Virus record (IMG/VR): IMGVR_UViG_3300021197_000608
Source of the DNA: an uncultured virus (IMG/VR IMGVR_UViG_3300021197_000608)
Taxonomy: Duplodnaviria > Heunggongvirae > Uroviricota > Caudoviricetes
Reading direction: 5' to 3' (one strand)
DNA length: 64,000 nt
The notes beneath the pieces were generated by a model that worked only from the letters and a program-made list of their open reading frames with translations, had not been told where the DNA came from and did not search any database. Shown in pieces: positions 182-37,383 of this stretch; the stretch's first letter is position 1; every line of letters begins with the position of its first letter. Made by a program: the position numbers and the translations under genes.

Positions 182-418
182 TCAAGCACCCATCATGTAA
201 TATCCCTTTGCAGCTACATCCATTGTACCATCTCCATTACAGTATGTCTGATACAACTCCGTACCACTGAAGTGTATACACGCCTCACAGTATTCATCAA
301 AGTGTCTCACTGGAATGGTCGCCTTGATAGGCATCTTCCAATCATCCATACCCTTTGTAAGATAGTTAAACCTTACTCTTAGATTTCCTATGTGTAGTTC
401 ATCTAGCATTATGCACAA
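182..418 (-). CDS. hypothetical early protein
   Basis: 78 aa ORF overlapping the end of the upstream gene on the same strand. Confidence 0.55.
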   Translation of the reverse strand: MCIMLDELHIGNLRVRFNYLTKGMDDWKMPIKATIPVRHFDEYCEACIHFSGTELYQTYCNGDGTMDVAAKGYYMMGA

Positions 419-6434: not shown

Positions 6435-6743
6435 TCAACTTGCATTGATTAACTCATATGCGGCGTCAACTGCATCAGAATCAAATCCACCAATGTGCCA
6501 GTCATATTCATCAGTTGGAATATAACCAGTTTTCCAATTGTAGATTGAGAACTTTACAAAATCCTCACCAGTATCAGCCTCGACACTCCATTCAGCATTT
6601 ACCTTTTCATAGGGGTCTGAATCGGTGTAGGTAGGTTTACCAAAAATCTCTACAAGTTTGTCATAGGTTGTTTTGATAACACCCTTATAAGAACTCATAT
6701 TCATATTTACAGCTTCACTGCATTCATAATCAACTACTAACAT
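6435..6743 (-). CDS. phage hypothetical early protein
   Basis: YDKLVEIFGKPT..KVNAEW..IYNWK..WHIGG; AAGGAGAG SD. Confidence 0.7.
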   Translation of the reverse strand: MLVVDYECSEAVNMNMSSYKGVIKTTYDKLVEIFGKPTYTDSDPYEKVNAEWSVEADTGEDFVKFSIYNWKTGYIPTDEYDWHIGGFDSDAVDAAYELINAS

Positions 6744-7354
6744 ACTCTCTCTCCTTATTTATTTTCATTATATAATATTATACCACCAATAATCATTGCT
6801 GTCAACCCAAAAAACATAACTATTAGCATTTCACCAAAAGTATTTGCATACTCTACACAAGCACCATCACAGTCATTTGCTGAACCAGCGACTGCCATAA
6901 TACCACCAATAGCCAATACTGCACCAATTATATTCCACATGTTCATTCTCCCTCAATCATAAGTTATTTGTGCTGCATAGTCAATCTTATCAAAGATTGC
7001 ATCCAACTCTTTAAGTTTTTCTTTGCACTTCATTATTGCAAAACCATTTCCAGGCGTTTTCTTTTTCTTCTTTTCTAGACTTTTTAACATATCCGAAAAG
7101 AAATACCATTCTTCCTGTAATTTAGTAATAGGATCTACCATAATTTAACTCCATTCTCATGTGCAGCTTGCATTTCAACAATCTCTGCCTGTTGCATCCA
7201 AAATTCGTTTTCGTCCATGACGATAACATCACGTTCACATTCATTCAACACCATCTGATGTTCACACGCATTGCCGTAGCATTCTTCCTCAGCAATAACA
7301 TTTCCATTCTCAATCAAAACAAACATACCGAATCACCTCTCTCATTACCCTTAT

Positions 7355-7383
7355 ATAATACCATTGTTATGATAACAAGTCAA
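7355..7383 (-). promoter_or_regulatory. early promoter with spacer palindrome
   Basis: TTGACT-17-TATTAT; TTGTTATGATAACAA at 7364-7378. Confidence 0.8.
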
Positions 7384-8871: not shown

Positions 8872-9105
8872 TACTAAACTCCTTCCATTTCACAAAGTGC
8901 ATCACTAATTAAACCACGAATACTAACTTGACTCTCGTCAACCTCAATACCACAACTCTGTGCAGTATCTAAAATCTGACGAGCGCAACAACTAATGTCA
9001 GAAGTACCAATTTCTTCTGCATCACCAAACATCCACTCTACTTCTTCTTGGACGATATCTTCTAATGTTGTCATATGATTCTCTCTTTCTCTAACTTACA
9101 TATAC

Positions 9106-9184
9106 AAGCTACCATTGTTTTCATAACAAGTCAAGCGATTTTTAGAAAAAAGCCAAAAAAAAAGCCCTGTAAAAACAGGACTTT
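9106..9184 (-). promoter_or_regulatory. early promoter cassette (palindrome, A-tracts, promoter with spacer palindrome)
   Basis: TTGACT-17-TAGCTT; TTGTT-N5-AACAA at 9115-9129; inverted repeat at 9161-9184. Confidence 0.75.
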
Positions 9185-24928: not shown

Positions 24929-25447
24929 CTACTCGTGTTCTCCGCCTGGGTCATTCGGATCAAGTCTAATTTTTTCAACTTTACCACCACCAGAAAGATA
25001 CATAACTTGTCTAGACCTACTTGGCGTACCAGTAGGGAAATTAGTAAAAAAAGATGGTTTACGTTTTGCAGTTTCAAATGTTCCTACTGTAATAACAATA
25101 GCTGCAAGTAAGATAATGTGAGCAATTGCACTAATACCAAATACAACAAAACTACCAACTAAAAACGAAAATACGATGCACCACATCCATGCAAGTATTT
25201 GTAAAACCATATGTCTTACTTGTAAATCTGGAATATGTCTCAATGGATTTCTATCCATATCCATTACGCCATTCCAACAATCATATACCCATTGTCTCAT
25301 ATCTATTACCTTTTCAAATGTTACCTTTACTGGATAATGTGCATCCACAACATCTCTAAAATCTATTGCATCATATACATTCACAAACTTTTGTACAACT
25401 TTTTTATCTTTAAAATATCCAGTTACACGATACATAATAATCTCCAA
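24929..25447 (-). CDS. membrane protein of unknown function
   Basis: NPLRHIPD..RHMVLQILAWMWC with 2 TMs; start uncertain. Confidence 0.6.
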   Translation of the reverse strand: MEIIMYRVTGYFKDKKVVQKFVNVYDAIDFRDVVDAHYPVKVTFEKVIDMRQWVYDCWNGVMDMDRNPLRHIPDLQVRHMVLQILAWMWCIVFSFLVGSFVVFGISAIAHIILLAAIVITVGTFETAKRKPSFFTNFPTGTPSRSRQVMYLSGGGKVEKIRLDPNDPGGEHE

Positions 25448-25454
25448 ATTAAGT

Positions 25455-25745
25455 GGTAGGTTATTCTGTTACTAGGAAACCCACCGAAACCCTATCGGAT
25501 TAAGCTGCTAGAGCATAACCTTGAGGTGCAAAATTATCGTTTGCGTTTAGTTTTGTTAGACTATTAGGCGTCTATCCCACAGTTCTACTCTTACCTATCC
25601 CTATCAGTCGATCCTAGTTCGCCCCCATCATAATCCCACTCCCAAGCAGTGATTCAATATCTCATCTAGAAGTGAGATTATGGTGGAGGCGATGGGTACT
25701 GCCCCCATGTCCTGTCTAGTATTCGGTTTGTATCAACAAACTGTA
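25455..25745 (-). ncRNA. ssrA: two-piece circularly permuted tmRNA
   Basis: acceptor piece ends CGCCTCCACCA at 25681; hairpin intervening sequence 25627-25680; coding piece starts GGGGGCG at 25626 (G3.U70); tag ANDNFAPQGYALAA* at 25544-25500; outer ends approximate. Confidence 0.93.
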
Positions 25746-25748
25746 CTC

Positions 25749-25779
25749 TATTTATACCACAGTAGTTCCAAAGAGTCAA
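25749..25779 (-). promoter_or_regulatory. overlapping sigma70 and late promoter for tmRNA
   Basis: TTGACT-17-TATAAA, with the -10 extended to TATAAATA. Confidence 0.7.
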
Positions 25780-25964
25780 GAAGAAATTGATCCTACTGGC
25801 TTACAAATAAATTCTACAGTATCCCAATCACCATCAACTGGAATTTCTGTATACTCAACCATCATAACTTCGCATTCTGATTGAGTTTGAAACCACTGCA
25901 CATCTTGTTCTAGACATGTGCTTCCAGAACAAACTGTCAATAGTATATGCCAAATTGTTTCCAT
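25776..25964 (-). CDS. small two-Cys family protein
   Basis: FQTQSEC...FICKP. Confidence 0.6.
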   Translation of the reverse strand: METIWHILLTVCSGSTCLEQDVQWFQTQSECEVMMVEYTEIPVDGDWDTVEFICKPVGSISS

Positions 25965-28858: not shown

Positions 28859-29395
28859 CTACTTCTCCCACCGATAAAAGATATGATCTTCAATCTCAAT
28901 TGTTTTTGTTTTGGTTCTTGCCCATGCTGGACGTACATAGTCTGCATGATAATGTGTTGCACCTTCTGTAATGTCCATGAGTTTTATTGTACCATTAATT
29001 ACCATTTCACTCAAGAGAAAAATCTCATTAAATGTTTCTTTATCATGTGCAATATCGCTTTTGCCATCACAATACCAACTGAACTGACACTTATGTCGAA
29101 TAGGTATCATCTCACCAGTACCCTTCCAACTAGGTCGAGAAGGGCCTTCATAGACAACACCACAGATTGTATTTGGAAATCTAGAATCATTTACACGATT
29201 TATAGTGACAGACATAACTGCCATCTGTCCAGCCGCTGGTTGATTCCTTGCTTCAAAGTATACATTCTGTGCAAGACACTGTGCTTCTCTATGTCTGAAT
29301 TCTTCTACACCTAGAGATGAATCATCAGCATATGCGGCTGGCATGAGTGTCAATGCACTCATTAGTAGTTCTTTAATCATGGATAGTTGCCCCAA
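28859..29395 (-). CDS. SleB-like cell wall hydrolase (Hydrolase_2)
   Basis: CLAQNVYFEAR, NRV..FPNTIC, CQFSWYCDG, GATHYHADYV.P.W, HIFY. Confidence 0.9.
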   Translation of the reverse strand: MGQLSMIKELLMSALTLMPAAYADDSSLGVEEFRHREAQCLAQNVYFEARNQPAAGQMAVMSVTINRVNDSRFPNTICGVVYEGPSRPSWKGTGEMIPIRHKCQFSWYCDGKSDIAHDKETFNEIFLLSEMVINGTIKLMDITEGATHYHADYVRPAWARTKTKTIEIEDHIFYRWEK

Positions 29396-29982
29396 TATTC
29401 ATTCCATTGACTCGATACAACATCCTTTGCGATATCTTTATCCCAACTAGACGTATATCCTAATTTATCAATTACGAATGTTTGAACTTCTGAAACATGT
29501 TCAGCTTCACTAAACTTGTTTTCAATTCCATCAATTGAGAAAACCTCTTCCTCAACATCCATCATGTAACTTTTAACTGCTCCCATTATACAATCTCCTC
29601 AAAACCCATCATTGCAACTTTGTACTTTGTAGTACCCAATAACATCTGGTCGTTCATACTTGTAGAACGTAAACCATATGTTTGTCCATCCACTTCTTTA
29701 AGTGGAGCCATAACAGTGACGTTTGGATTATAGTCACCATTCTTTTCACCATCCTCAAAGTATTCTTCTTTGATACTCCAAGAACCCATTACGTTATTTG
29801 TCCAACGATATGCATATTCAAGTTTTTCATTATCTGATGGTAAATCAGGCACATCTACAAAAGCAACTGTATGTGGGGTTTCCTCAAACGCTGCGTGAAT
29901 AACTGCTACTTGTGTCATAATATATTCCTCTCTTTTCATTCTACATACTAATTATAACTGTTGATTCGTCAATTGTCAAGAG

Positions 29983-30402
29983 CTAAAGTATGTTTGATTC
30001 CCAAACTAATTGAGCAAGTTTATCTTCCATTCGGTATGCCTCTTTCTCCCAAGGCAAATCCCAATAACTAACTGAGTCTGCAACTGTAGACCTTTTCCAA
30101 TGTCTGTCAGTAATGTTACCACTCATCTCATTACGAGCGTACTGTTTTGCATGTACCATTTCGTGACACAATGCAGTGACAAAATCTTTCAAGGATAATT
30201 CTTTACTAACCTCAATCTCAAACTCACGATTAGTATCTTCCATCATGCAGTAACCGATAGCATCATCAGTAAACTTACGAATGTTAACAGTAATGTCTAA
30301 AGTTCTCATACGAGGCATAAGAGCTTTAATCATCGTGTCGATAACATTATAAGCAACTTTCTTTTGGTATTTGTTACCACCGTTTATTTCAATATAATTC
30401 AT
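29983..30402 (-). CDS. HExxH metallopeptidase-like early protein
   Basis: LCHEMVHAKQ..Y.DLPWEKEA. Confidence 0.7.
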   Translation of the reverse strand: MNYIEINGGNKYQKKVAYNVIDTMIKALMPRMRTLDITVNIRKFTDDAIGYCMMEDTNREFEIEVSKELSLKDFVTALCHEMVHAKQYARNEMSGNITDRHWKRSTVADSVSYWDLPWEKEAYRMEDKLAQLVWESNIL

Positions 30403-30427
30403 AATCTCTCCGAATCACTATACTAAT

Positions 30428-30497
30428 AGTATACTTGTTATTACAACAAAAGTCAAGAGAAAAAGTAAAAAAAAAGTTCTTGAAAATCAAGAACTTA
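30428..30497 (-). promoter_or_regulatory. early promoter cassette
   Basis: TTGACT-17-TATACT; TTGTT-N5-AACAA at 30435-30449; palindrome AAGTTCTTGA-AAA-TCAAGAACTT. Confidence 0.75.
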
Positions 30498-30567
30498 GAA
30501 AAAAATTTAGTGAGGAGCAACTCTATTGAGAGAGTTGAGAGAGAAAGGAAGTTGCCCCTCACCAATG
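30498..30567 (-). ncRNA. candidate small hairpin RNA with anti-SD loop
   Basis: own TTGACT-17-TATTAT promoter (30573-30601); 16-bp stem; loop CCUUUCUCUCUCAACUCUCUCAAUA; U-tract. Confidence 0.5.
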
Positions 30568-30607
30568 ATTCTATAATACCACTAAGATACCATAGAGTCA
30601 ATAAGTT

Positions 30608-31480
30608 TTAGTCAAATAGTTTTTCAAAAGTAGCAGTTCCTGCCACTCCATCTGCAACCAAACCATTTGCTGATTGCCATTCTTTTAATGCACGTTCTGT
30701 GCCTGGCCCAAAGTCTCCATCTGCACCAATACCTAATGCTTCTTGCATAAGTTTGACACCTTCGCCTTTTGCACCTTTTCTTAAAACACCAATATCGTCA
30801 AGGATATCTTCTACAGAACTATCGTCTGCACCTAAATCCTCTACACTCATACCTAGTACTTCCATTGCATGAGAGTATCGTTTTTGTCTATCCTCTAATC
30901 CAATATTGCCACCGTTGATCTTCTTAGTCATTTTCACAACATTGTCTGTATCAGCGATATCATTCAGATTATTTGCATCCCAAAACCAACATGCAGATTC
31001 AATCGCACCAGATGGTGTTGCAACATACTCTGCTGCCTGTTCTGCACTCATATTAATACTTTCACCAAACTTAGTGTAGTTATGTCTACCTGTTAATTGT
31101 TTTAGGCCTCTGCCTCTGAACAACCAACCATCACCTTCATTGACGTTGCCCATTTTGTACTTACGATATTCGTCCATGTACACATAGTTTGCAATCATTT
31201 CTGGTTTACGGTGATATTCATCTGCATCACGTTTAGGTGAGTTACCAAAGTATCGTCCAAAGACTGCACGAAGCGCCTTTGCACTATAGTTTAGATTTTC
31301 TTCTAATCGTTTGAACCCACCAGATTCGTGGGCACACTGACTTAAAAAGTGTGCAACTCTACGTTCTGTTGTGATACCATATTTTGGTAACAGTTCGCAC
31401 AGTGCATCATACCAATCATCAGCATCAGCAGATATGATTTCTGCAAGATGTCCTTTAGTAAAATCGAATTCAAAGCTCAT
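30608..31480 (-). CDS. GH19 endolysin with C-terminal peptidoglycan-binding domain
   Basis: AHFLSQCAHES, ENLNYS, FRGRGLKQLTGR.NY, INGG..GL.DR; DG.FGPGT..A...WQ..GL.ADG. Confidence 0.9.
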   Translation of the reverse strand: MSFEFDFTKGHLAEIISADADDWYDALCELLPKYGITTERRVAHFLSQCAHESGGFKRLEENLNYSAKALRAVFGRYFGNSPKRDADEYHRKPEMIANYVYMDEYRKYKMGNVNEGDGWLFRGRGLKQLTGRHNYTKFGESINMSAEQAAEYVATPSGAIESACWFWDANNLNDIADTDNVVKMTKKINGGNIGLEDRQKRYSHAMEVLGMSVEDLGADDSSVEDILDDIGVLRKGAKGEGVKLMQEALGIGADGDFGPGTERALKEWQSANGLVADGVAGTATFEKLFD

Positions 31481-34220: not shown

Positions 34221-34664
34221 CTATTTTTGAAATCTCAGGGAATAAGTTCTACCCTCGTATGTAAATGTAACAGTCGAATGACTATAGATAGTGTGTCTAC
34301 TTTCATTGTATGTTGTAACATCTCTACAAACTTGTTGTTGTTTGTAACCAACAATTCGTTGATTTCCTTTTTTCTTATCAGCGGCAACCATACCACCAAT
34401 CACTGCACCAGCAGCTGCACCTTTGTCATTACCAGACGCACCCTTACCAAGTAAACCACCAATAATGATACCAGTAAGAACATCTGCACCAGAGGCACCA
34501 CCACCTGATTGTCCATAGATAGGAACATCTACAACTTCACATGATTGATATGTAGTCGGTATACGTTTAGTTACAGACTTATAATGATCTTGTGCTTCAT
34601 GTGCAGCTGCTGGATGGCAACCAATCAAAAAAACGAGTGCTGATGTACCAAGTAATTTCTTCAT
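34221..34664 (-). CDS. glycine-zipper envelope protein
   Basis: signal peptide; GIIIGGLLG..G.G...AAAGAVIGG. Confidence 0.7.
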   Translation of the reverse strand: MKKLLGTSALVFLIGCHPAAAHEAQDHYKSVTKRIPTTYQSCEVVDVPIYGQSGGGASGADVLTGIIIGGLLGKGASGNDKGAAAGAVIGGMVAADKKKGNQRIVGYKQQQVCRDVTTYNESRHTIYSHSTVTFTYEGRTYSLRFQK

Positions 34665-35675
34665 TCTTTTATCTCCAATACAAAATCACCAGTTCCAAAT
34701 AGTTCATATCCAGTTTTACATTCAGTGATTTTTACATATGTATCCAATACTCGACACATCTCTTTTGCAGCCACAATGGCCTCTTCTAACGTCTTATAAA
34801 TCATGTCATTATCAATTAAACCTCCGAATCACGAACAACATTCTATAATACCAAATTTATGACTCAGTGTCAAGAGGTATTAATTCTTTTTCTTTTGAAT
34901 CGCCGTGATATTTTACTTTTATATAATTACCTTTTTCTAAAGTTTCAAGTGTGTGTTCAATTATCTCATCCACAACCTGTTTTTTACCTAAGTACTTTCC
35001 GTAGTAAAAGAAAGCAGCAAGTATTGATGTTGCTAAAATAGCATGTTCAATTGCTGTCATTTATCGCTCCAATGTAACGTAATCTCCAAAATATTTAGTG
35101 AACACAGAAATAAGGTTTTCATAATCACCTTCTATCATTTCATCTGTGATTGCATCACTATCCAATCCTAACTGTACTGCAAGGTCTCCTGCTCTTGAGA
35201 GTAGAAAAAATGCATTACCAGCAGGCCCATTTAAATCAATAACCTGTTCTTGCATAATCGCACTCCTGTTCCATTTCAGTTTCAAATTGGTTGAAGGTAT
35301 CTTTTTTCTTCAAAAGAAGAACTTCAACAGCATGAAGTGCCATGTACTTCTCATCCGAAGCACCTTCATTCATGGCAATTACAAGGTTCTCTAAAACCTC
35401 AATGTCTTCCAAAAGGTCAACCATTACGCAGCCTCCAATAAGTAACTACAATGTTTTGCAACGTCTTCAGGCGTTGCAAAGTAATCAGTGTACCTATCAA
35501 AAGGTACAATCATACCACCACAGTCTGGATCTTTACAGACTGCACCGACATACCACCCAGCGGCAGAGGCCATTACGAGATTCTCCGATACAGGCATATC
35601 TGTACCGTAAAATTTAACGTCTTTAATGTTTTTTTGAATTTTCATAGCGAATCACCTTTCTCATCATCTATATAC

Positions 35676-35704
35676 ATAATACCATTGTTATCACAACAAG
35701 TCAA
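35676..35704 (-). promoter_or_regulatory. early promoter with spacer palindrome
   Basis: TTGACT-17-TATTAT; TTGTT-N5-AACAA at 35685-35699. Confidence 0.8.
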
Positions 35705-36053: not shown

Positions 36054-36802
36054 AATCTCTCTCCTTAGTTTGGAAATACTAAACCAAAATCTCTAATCAT
36101 TATATCACGAACATGTTCTCTGTCAAGACTATCACCAGAAAATCCTAAAGTATTTTCTTCTGAATACATGCCAACTTTGTTGATATAGTTTTGTGTCGAT
36201 TTAATAATCTGTTTAGGTGTTGCACCCATTGGATAAATCGCATCAGGCACATCACCATAAAAACTTTCTACATAAGAAATAAAATCAATTACCTCTGAAA
36301 CAATTTTTTCTACACTCATAATTAACTCCTAACTAATATTCCACTTGAGTTGAACTTTACCTTTTTGCAAACACTCTTTGAAGTACTCAAGATATTCAAC
36401 AGTCTTACCTTCTTCAATCATTTTATCAATGTTTGATATCATGCTGTTTTCAGCTTCAGCAAAGTTTAAAAAGAACTGACCATTCTCATCTTCAACAGTA
36501 AGTTTCTTGTGTTTCCAATCTTCGTAAAAATATGCCATTACACTAACTCCAATGCTTGTGCCCAAAGTATTTTCGCACCATCGTGTGTTGCAAATCCTTC
36601 TTCGTCTGCAAAATCCATTGAAGAACTTCCCATTACTGTTTCTGCAATACCTTTAGTTCTCAAGATATATGCGATACCTTCAGCAGTACTAGACCAACCG
36701 ACAAGGCCAGTATCTGAACAACACTGAATCCCACCATTGTGAGCACTGATAAAATCTACTTGATTTGACATTTGTAATACCTTTCTCTCTGATTACATAT
36801 AT

Positions 36803-36892
36803 AATGTACCATTGTTATGATAACAAGTCAAGCGTTTTTTGAAAAAAAGTGAAAAAAAGTTGAAAAAAAAGCCCTTGAGAATCAAGGGCTTA
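36803..36892 (-). promoter_or_regulatory. early promoter cassette
   Basis: TTGACT-17-TACATT; TTGTTATGATAACAA at 36812-36826; phased A-tracts; AAGCCCTTGA-GAA-TCAAGGGCTT. Confidence 0.8.
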
Positions 36893-36912: not shown

Positions 36913-37383
36913 TTAAAATTTTGTGAGAAATTGTGCAATTCTACCCACAAAAGGTAGCAACATTACCGCCATAAGCAGATTCATACCAGTATGTGCCATA
37001 GCGATTCGCAATGTGTCTCCCTTGGGCATCCCATCAGAAACGAACAATCCAGCCAACCAAATAGTTCCAGTTGTACCTATGTTTGCACCAAGCACTGCTG
37101 CAATCGCAGCTGGTAGTGGTAATGCACCAGAAGCGACTAGTGCAATGATTGCTGTTGTTGAGAGTGATGATGATTGCCAGAGTAGTGTCATAACAATACC
37201 ACCAAAGAACATATAAATTGGATTACCTAAAAAGAATGCAAGGTGTTCCATATTCCCCATCGACTTCATACCGCCAGAGAATGTTTTAAGACCAATATAA
37301 AAAATCACCAGACCCACGAGGGCGGTGATTATAGGGTTTCCTAAATCCATTTGTTTTACCTTTTTCCAAAGTTCAGTTGACAT
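36913..37383 (-). CDS. Na+/Pi cotransporter family (SLC34/NptA) protein with a single repeat
   Basis: QSSS signature and GANIGTT; 156 aa, hydrophobic. Confidence 0.85.
   Translation of the reverse strand: MSTELWKKVKQMDLGNPIITALVGLVIFYIGLKTFSGGMKSMGNMEHLAFFLGNPIYMFFGGIVMTLLWQSSSLSTTAIIALVASGALPLPAAIAAVLGANIGTTGTIWLAGLFVSDGMPKGDTLRIAMAHTGMNLLMAVMLLPFVGRIAQFLTKF

Follow-up and report, generated by a model that had tools for sequence, protein, structure and literature searches.

A new family of small RNA genes with a CU-repeat loop in Melnitz-like marine myophages and its candidate targets

In alphaproteobacteria, the small RNAs (sRNAs) Cuckoo (alpha-r14) and AbcR (alpha-r15) carry C/U-rich loops resembling the anti-Shine-Dalgarno (anti-SD) sequence and are presumed to mask ribosome-binding sites (RBS), and in RepG of Helicobacter pylori as well as in the RsaE/RoxS-type sRNAs of Firmicutes a pyrimidine-rich loop seeds the pairing with purine-rich leaders or Shine-Dalgarno (SD) sequences. 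DicF, a phage-borne trans-acting RNA, is thought to repress translation by pairing with the RBS, and phage T4 produces the stable RNAs species 1 and 2 (rnaC/rnaD), which are co-transcribed with its transfer RNA (tRNA) cluster and for which we know of no function. To our knowledge, the regulatory RNAs of virulent phages are altogether few. Here, the 64,000-nucleotide DNA of the uncultured tailed virus IMGVR_UViG_3300021197_000608 (the window, taken at its full length) was analysed for an element on the minus strand directly behind an endolysin gene, in which an initial annotation had seen an sRNA with an anti-SD loop akin to those of AbcR and Cuckoo, proposed to repress early phage genes or host mRNAs. 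The locus is very probably a real and functional RNA gene, and comparative data give good support to a new sRNA family of Melnitz-like marine myophages; that the RNA acts by base-pairing with SD regions, thereby repressing the translation of a limited number of phage messages, is the likeliest mode of action, though one that we regard as evenly balanced.

With Cuckoo and AbcR the phage RNA shares the C/U-rich, anti-SD-like sequence of its loop and the repetition of a motif within one RNA. It is, however, not a member of either family, and a kinship with them is not supported: in a cmscan search of positions 30380-30660 against Rfam, the family models do not match even at E values up to 10, the best hit being Cyano-1 on the opposite strand with 18.6 bits as compared to a gathering score of 41. 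The whole window, searched at gathering score, returned tmRNA and tRNA only. Moreover, the loops of Cuckoo and AbcR have a CCUCC-type motif, whereas the phage RNA has one 25-nt loop with CUCUCUC repeats; two or more hairpins displaying CCUCC, as are typical of these families, were not found, there being one loop-bearing hairpin plus a simple terminator hairpin (3-nt loop); and the genomes that encode the phage RNA are those of lytic T4-like phages, where a tRNA often belongs to the same unit. RepG and the RsaE/RoxS-type sRNAs differ in sequence, structure and hosts and show neither sequence nor model similarity to the phage RNA in Rfam, and their targets have been established experimentally, whereas those of the phage RNA are predicted. 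In contrast to DicF, the RNA is carried by a virulent marine myophage of the T4-like kind, its candidate targets are early leaders of that phage itself, and catalogued relatives are missing. The likeness to the T4 species 1 and 2 RNAs is by context only, that is, a small stable non-tRNA RNA sharing a unit with a phage tRNA; unlike these, the present RNA is shorter, and copies lacking the tRNA nevertheless keep the promoter of the RNA. In two papers on SAR11 and OM43 myophages (PMC7029224, PMC9004378) the terms 'sRNA', 'small RNA' and 'non-coding' do not occur, and literature searches for pelagimyophages, for phage anti-Shine-Dalgarno sRNAs and for CUCUCUC sRNAs yielded no description of this RNA.

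All genes around the sRNA locus lie on the minus strand (Table 1). The TTGACT-17-TATTAT promoter named in the initial annotation is present and in addition has an extended TG; with 10 of 12 consensus matches in a consensus scan, it starts 6 nt past the endolysin stop codon and ends 7 nt before the hairpin, the predicted start of the RNA being at about 30566. The number of consensus promoters within 2 kb is not above chance (9 versus 6.8 ± 2.6 in shuffles); above chance level are the fold and, most of all, the conservation among relatives. In the minimum-energy fold the hairpin consists of 17 pairs, three of them wobble pairs, and a 25-nt CU-rich loop (CCUUUCUCUCUCAACUCUCUCAAUA), so that the annotated loop length stands while the stem is one pair longer than the 16 bp originally given. 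A 116-nt stretch folds with -35.8 kcal/mol (z = -7.5), a value reached by none of 200 shuffles. The U-tract described behind the stem was found as well (U7, 30505-30499, separated from the stem by a single A); overlooked had been a second, canonical terminator with a U9 run, at which the 3' end of the sRNA is likely to lie, and therefore the RNA is more likely to measure about 99 nt (about 30566 down to about 30468) than about 70 nt.

A strong hairpin with a U7 tract right after a stop codon does resemble an intrinsic terminator. However, the loops of intrinsic terminators usually comprise 3-8 nt, whereas the first hairpin has a conserved 25-nt loop, a promoter of its own and a separate real terminator downstream, and a terminator scan calls the second hairpin only. 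Among the relatives, non-U sequence or a tRNA directly follows the hairpin, and a U tract at 1-4 nt from the stem is absent in most; in the window, the real terminator is situated 10 nt further on. The U7 tract is to be considered a local feature and not a conserved terminator. A coding function was rejected, in agreement with the absence of a credible open reading frame (ORF) noted at the outset, because the hairpin lengths of 46 distinct relatives fall in all residues modulo 3 (23, 12 and 11), so that no reading frame is kept.

The fold is borne out by covariation. In a plain MAFFT alignment, RNAalifold finds compensatory changes in 7 of the 10 predicted pairs. A covariance model (R1) was built from an alignment (A1) of 36 sequences, and in the model-fitted alignment A2 (49 matches, 46 of them distinct), which is biased toward the model by construction, 13 of the 14 stem pairs change on both sides. 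Here, 90.3% of the cells are paired, as compared to 72.9% in shuffles (0 of 500 reach the observed value) and to 34-58% when the 3' partner is slid by 1-3 columns. G-U pairs are common, with, e.g., 16 of 46 sequences having one at each of two positions, and together with the sense-strand scores of the model (see below) this indicates an RNA of the minus, i.e., sense strand. While the stems are replaced wholesale, two CUCUCUC-type repeats are kept, invariant or nearly so, in every loop variant, such that a conserved single-stranded seed sits within a covarying structure; variable are the centre of the loop (CAAC, CGACUU or CAAAU) and its 5' extension (ACC, UCC or UUCCUUU). Both the covariation and the loop conservation that the initial annotation had named for checking its proposal are found.

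The window encodes T4 RNase H-like, PhoH, RNR, DnaB-like and RecA/UvsX-like proteins, and its closest cultured phage is the Methylophilales (OM43) phage Melnitz, the large RNR subunit being 88% identical and the local gene order the same. At the locus, the closest record (G001, a fragment of 25.7 kb) is 99% identical. In a set anchored on the endolysin gene, comprising 80 viral-contig loci and thus 81 sources with the window, model R1 finds the element in 18 sources with 52-67 bits on the sense strand (60.3 bits for the window copy) as compared to about 18-24 bits on the opposite strand, and in the closer relatives the promoter-hairpin unit lies directly behind the endolysin gene. A pattern scan of viral contigs with a 16-base loop core returned at least 120 loci. 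In all 35 distinct promoter-bearing hairpins, a TTGAC-N(16-18)-TAnnAT promoter ends 2-9 nt before the stem, and the layout of the window, a non-coding unit bounded by its own promoter and terminator, recurs in these 35 relatives. With the homologue of Melnitz gene 64 as anchor, which introduces no bias toward the loop motif, 46 of 80 loci carry the element about 35 nt past that gene. The sRNA element is therefore found behind at least two different upstream genes, and the promoter at the stem base, the covarying stem with its retained loop and the frequently co-transcribed tRNA described below likewise make it more than the terminator of the endolysin gene.

Melnitz itself has the element at MZ577095.1 37295-37347 (49.3 bits, E = 3.4e-10 with model R1), where a promoter and a terminator flank a 14-bp stem of wholly different sequence with the loop ACCUCUCUCUCGACUUUCUCUCUCA. 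The hypothetical coding sequence Melnitz1EXVC043M_65 (MZ577095.1 37295-37474, corresponding to L322 4644-4823) overlies this RNA: it begins at an AUG in the 5' arm of the hairpin and extends across loop and terminator as well as the promoter that follows. Most likely, it is a mis-annotated RNA gene, and the annotation would have to be corrected. The family is widespread in marine viral contigs and has strong comparative support, and as it is present in the cultured pair of Melnitz and Methylophilales sp. H5P1, its expression and targets can be tested directly.

Prokaryote genomes served as control. A scan for the same 16-mer gave at least 125 instances in at least 120 loci; 100 of 120 loci were searched with the model, and among these the maximum was 39.8 bits, with all but two at or below 29.3 bits. 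Among the matches listed, a tidy hairpin and terminator with a CUCUCUCAACUCUCUC loop occur in two prokaryote loci only, one from an alphaproteobacterial metagenome-assembled genome (MAG; L272, about 283-333, minus strand) and one from a Planctomycetota MAG (L256, about 285-400, plus strand), the latter with a second CU stretch. These may be cellular counterparts or phage DNA within the bins, and neither identifies a host. The large lysin-bearing contigs G002-G004 (167-180 kb) do not contain the element, and G005 has only a divergent hairpin scoring 17.4 bits. A divergent hairpin without promoter was also observed in a 117.8-kb relative (L030, 3383-3434) after the lysin stop codon, followed by tRNA-Pro and tRNA-Trp and with the loop CUCCUUUCUCUUACAACUUACA; the element may here be present in a decayed or an alternative form.

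Many copies share their unit with a tRNA. In 12 of the 35 distinct promoter-bearing copies, ARAGORN calls a tRNA-Gly(UCC) 5-12 nt past the hairpin, followed by a terminator; 4 have a tRNA-like sequence with a CCA end that is not called by ARAGORN, in 17 the terminator comes directly after the hairpin, and in 2 the locus is cut off. The window represents the tRNA-less form, its linker lying at the exact position of the tRNA in the near relatives L007-L009 and also in L015. A tRNA in the same unit implies that the sRNA promoter drives a stable RNA. TRNA-sized sequences with a UCC anticodon-like loop, a CCA end and an odd D-arm were observed 3' of the hairpin in L011, L111, L121, L140, L365, L372; such tRNA-like sequences occupy the site of the regular tRNA-Gly(UCC) in other relatives.

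A scheme of the following kind can be drawn from these features. Starting at the early-type promoter of the unit itself, host sigma-70 RNA polymerase would synthesise a transcript of about 99 nt; this RNA would open with the long hairpin, which keeps the 25-nt loop single-stranded, and end at the intrinsic terminator. As the same transcript carries tRNA-Gly(UCC) in many relatives, the hairpin is proposed to be released there by tRNA processing, and read-through from the endolysin gene might also place it at the 3' end of the endolysin mRNA. The loop, composed of two CUCUCUC repeats plus a CCUUUCU or ACCUC 5' extension, would then pair with the purine-repeat SD sequences of a subset of messages, which in the window might be the leaders behind early promoters with a palindromic spacer, chiefly that of ORF 36771, and in a lineage akin to it the start region of the gene for a putatively exported 138-aa protein. 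With the SD thus occupied, ribosomes would be kept from binding and translation would be repressed, and the mRNA might decay as well.

What speaks for specific targets in the window is, above all, the leader of ORF 36771, the first gene after a terminator and an early-type promoter. Located 8 nt before its ATG, AGAGAGAAAGG is the exact complement of the loop bases CCUUUCUCUCU, as had been pointed out in the initial annotation; this 11-nt sequence has no other exact copy outside the sRNA element, and with up to one mismatch it is met 3 times in the window versus 1.9 times expected. The orthologues of ORF 36771 are complementary to the loops of their own phages, with GAGAGAGG (8 nt) in Melnitz, 9 nt in G009 and GUUGAGAGA... 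(10 nt) in G006, and leader and loop differ in a matched manner, GAAAGG facing CCUUUC in the window and GAGAGG facing CCUCUC in Melnitz and G009. The promoter of ORF 36771 belongs to a class of early promoters (TTGACTTGTTATCATAACAATGGTA) with the palindromic spacer TGTTAT-N-ATAACA, which has 4 matches at up to 3 mismatches in the window versus none in 100 shuffles; similar promoters number 11 in Melnitz and 4-5 each in G006 and G009. The palindromic spacer resembles an operator to which a dimeric repressor might bind. Within this class, 4 of 5 leaders contain a perfect loop complement of at least 8 nt over the SD (11, 8, 8 and 8 nt), whereas shuffled loops give a mean of 0.24 and only 1 of 2000 reaches 4.

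A longer match is found in the related contig G006 (51.8 kb), where the RNA is located at about 16.5 kb. The start region of its 138-aa gene (29655-30071), the product of which has an N-terminal hydrophobic segment, contains GAGAGAGUUGAGAGAGAGGC, a 20-nt perfect complement of the loop of the same phage that covers the SD (-42.1 kcal/mol; 0 of 60 shuffled loops reach this value). A complement of at least 9 nt is found in 8 of 101 start regions of G006, a number reached by 1 of 1000 shuffles. For the 138-aa orthologue of G009, the match extends over 11 nt (-31.7 kcal/mol, 0 of 60 shuffles), and the best duplex of G007 is likewise matched by none of 60 shuffles. Three consecutive genes of G006 (29200-30685; L418 9200-10685), coding for 140, 138 and 200 amino acids, have GA-repeat start regions complementary to the loop of G006 (-31.5, -42.1 and -25.6 kcal/mol, respectively); PHROG and Pfam assign no function to any of the three.

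Table 1. Coordinates of the sRNA locus, its neighbours and the candidate targets in the window
Feature	Position	Strand	Remarks
Endolysin gene, upstream neighbour	30608..31480	-	GH19-like catalytic part and peptidoglycan-binding domain
sRNA promoter	30573..30601	-	-35 TTGACT 30601-30596; 17-nt spacer ending in TGG (extended -10); -10 TATTAT 30578-30573
sRNA hairpin	30507..30565	-	5' arm 30565-30549; loop 30548-30524; 3' arm 30523-30507
A/U-rich linker	30497..30506	-	A, U7, C, U (sequence); site of tRNA-Gly(UCC) in relatives
Canonical intrinsic terminator	30467..30496	-	10-bp stem 30496-30474, 3-nt loop, U9 run to 30467 (terminator scan, fold)
Promoter of the next gene	30428..30456	-	TTGACT-17-TATACT; variant of the palindromic-spacer class; then leader GUGAUUCGGAGAG, ATG 30402
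Downstream gene	29983..30402	-	139-aa SprT/WLM-like protein; usual downstream neighbour of the sRNA in relatives (synteny)
Best candidate target AGAGAGAAAGG	36780..36790	-	SD region of ORF 36771-36538; 11-nt perfect complement
Early-type promoter with palindromic spacer	36803..36831	-	heads the candidate target transcript
Palindromic-spacer promoters	7355-7383, 9106-9134, 35676-35704, 36803-36831	-	looser variant at 30428-30456
GAGAAAGG, 8-nt loop complement	35655..35662	-	leader of promoter 35704-35676, ATG 35645
AGAGAAAG, 8-nt loop complement	9085..9092	-	leader of promoter 9134-9106, ATG 9074
UGAGAGAG, 8-nt loop complement	7337..7344	-	leader of promoter 7383-7355, ATG 7326

A considerable number of observations weigh against the pairing of the RNA with phage messages. 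When the loop of the window is compared to 119 crudely predicted start regions, matches of at least 8 nt number 4 versus a shuffle mean of 4.5, 282 of 1000 composition-matched shuffles attain a match of 10 nt or more, and 26 of 60 shuffles equal the best duplex energy; the corresponding figures for the best energy are 38 of 60 in Melnitz and 10 of 60 in G008. In the window, a position behind a sigma-70-like promoter of any kind gives start regions no preference (Mann-Whitney p = 0.52), most window genes have an ordinary AGGAG-type SD, and the promoter class was defined after the pattern had been seen, its leaders moreover being paralogous. Of the 11 leaders that Melnitz has in this promoter class, only one contains a complement of at least 8 nt, a result equalled by 599 of 2000 shuffles. 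GAGAGAG does stand before the ATGs at 6743 and 36053, as initially reported for other early genes, and its total of 8 in the window is not above the 7.8 expected by chance. A general anti-SD action was accordingly rejected genome-wide for the window on account of shuffle-level complementarity and the lack of a promoter-proximal preference; the anti-SD proposal is partly supported, by the complementarity of 4 of 5 leaders of a single promoter class and by the 20-nt and 11-nt matches in relatives.

The 138-aa gene was rejected as a universal target, too, because it is absent both from the window and from the complete genome of Melnitz and because its orthologues in L431 and L432 have ordinary SDs. 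The same GA 16-mer precedes an ATG in an 82.8-kb phage that lacks the sRNA, and such start regions can thus exist without the RNA. In an exhaustive scan, the GA 16-mer followed by ATG occurs in 10 loci, of which 3 belong to the 138-aa family, 2 to a small ORF on RNA-less contigs and 1 is the RNA reversed, the remaining 4 being chance-like. In the lineage of G008 and L082 (30.5% GC), the same loop resides in a 13-bp hairpin (G008 38,5xx; L082 382-434) for which neither a promoter nor a terminator can be recognised. From this hairpin to the SD of the SprT-like gene the distance is 20 nt, so that in this lineage the element belongs to the mRNA leader, i.e., the 5' untranslated region (UTR), of that gene. 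Finally, four RNA runs from four studies were examined as contigs, which show neither strand nor ends nor level; one contig alone, X7 from an oligo-dT library (267 nt, 30374-30640), spans the element, and the others cover parts of the flanking genes only, or the repeated promoter segment 30426-30464 with both ends loose.

Given these figures, other functions of the RNA have to be weighed. Instead of pairing with messages, the two CUCUCUC repeats might be half-sites for a pyrimidine-binding protein of the host or the phage, candidates being ribosomal protein S1, Rho, cold-shock proteins and Hfq, and the RNA might then act as a decoy or recruiter. Such a role would fit a loop that is a mirror-symmetric pair of repeats retained despite changes of its centre (CAAC, CGACUU, CAAAU), and it would fit the shuffle-level complementarity to start regions in the window and in Melnitz; we nevertheless consider it rather unlikely, since the 20-nt and 11-nt antisense matches at the start of one and the same gene in G006 and G009 include the CAAC centre, the loop variant of the window fits its own leaders, and no candidate partner protein was identified. 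Improbable, in our view, is also that the RNA is an antisense regulator of host messages, serving host takeover, with incidental matches to phage leaders: the early-type promoter, the resemblance of the CU-rich seed to the CCUCC anti-SD core and the weak phage-wide target statistics in the window and in Melnitz speak for it, the specific long matches inside the phage genomes against it.

Equally improbable is that the element functions purely in cis, as a stabiliser or terminator at the 3' end of the endolysin mRNA or as a 5' leader required for processing or expressing a tRNA-Gly precursor, without any trans function. There is no terminator between the endolysin stop codon and the hairpin, so that read-through transcripts must contain the latter, 16 of the 35 copies precede a tRNA or tRNA-like sequence, the hairpin in the G008 lineage is promoterless and lies inside a 5' UTR, and in the window the U7 tract comes directly after the hairpin and a single A. 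The U tract is, however, not conserved and a separate canonical terminator lies downstream; a stabiliser or terminator would need no invariant loop of 16-20 nt, and the element has a conserved promoter of its own at the stem base, stands behind two different upstream genes and is retained together with its promoter in 17 of 35 copies where the tRNA is absent. As CTCTCTCAACTCTCTC is a perfect mirror repeat, one might finally think of an element acting at the level of DNA, either an H-DNA-forming polypurine-polypyrimidine mirror repeat or a protein-binding site in double-stranded DNA. This is most improbable in view of arms that covary as base pairs, many of them G-U pairs that turn into A-C mismatches when the opposite strand is read, of strand-asymmetric model scores and of the fixed orientation relative to promoter and terminator.

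Two papers report that streamlined marine T4-like phages are devoid of the T4 middle-mode regulators (PMC7029224, PMC9004378). Going beyond the repression of a few messages by pairing, it may be speculated, as a rather doubtful extension, that the early genes of these phages are governed by a two-part switch of which the RNA forms the trans-acting half. Early units would be marked by the palindromic, operator-like promoter spacer and by a leader with a GA-repeat SD, and the CU-loop RNA, accumulating from its own promoter or upon release from a tRNA-Gly precursor, would as a free mimic of the ribosomal anti-SD silence the marked leaders jointly and so time the transition from early to late expression. 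If pairing does take place as proposed, phages of genome-streamlined hosts would have an RNA-based means of timing translation.

As to the neighbouring genes, the endolysin assignment is based on matches to Pfam PG_binding_1 (8.4e-12) and PHROG phrog_181 (endolysin, 3.7e-71) and a weak one to Glyco_hydro_19, and the 139-aa protein encoded downstream belongs to phrog_10499 and has a weak match to the Pfam SprT-like family (3.6e-4). In the promoter-proximal leaders of 796-1209, 29983-30402, 34661-34804, 35424-35645 and about 7145-7326, GUGAUUCGGAG or GGUGAUUCG is found just upstream of the start codon and, from its sequence, appears to be a conserved extended SD-like block. Apart from a tRNA-Arg(UCU), the window contains a two-piece (permuted) alpha-type tmRNA (25409-25783, minus strand) with the tag ANDNFAPQGYALAA; an alpha-type tmRNA is already described for Melnitz and relatives in PMC9004378. 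Adjoining the candidate target operon, a 156-aa ORF on the minus strand (36913-37383) matches the Na+/Pi-cotransporter family PF02690 (1.4e-15) and is possibly a fragment of an auxiliary phosphate-uptake gene.

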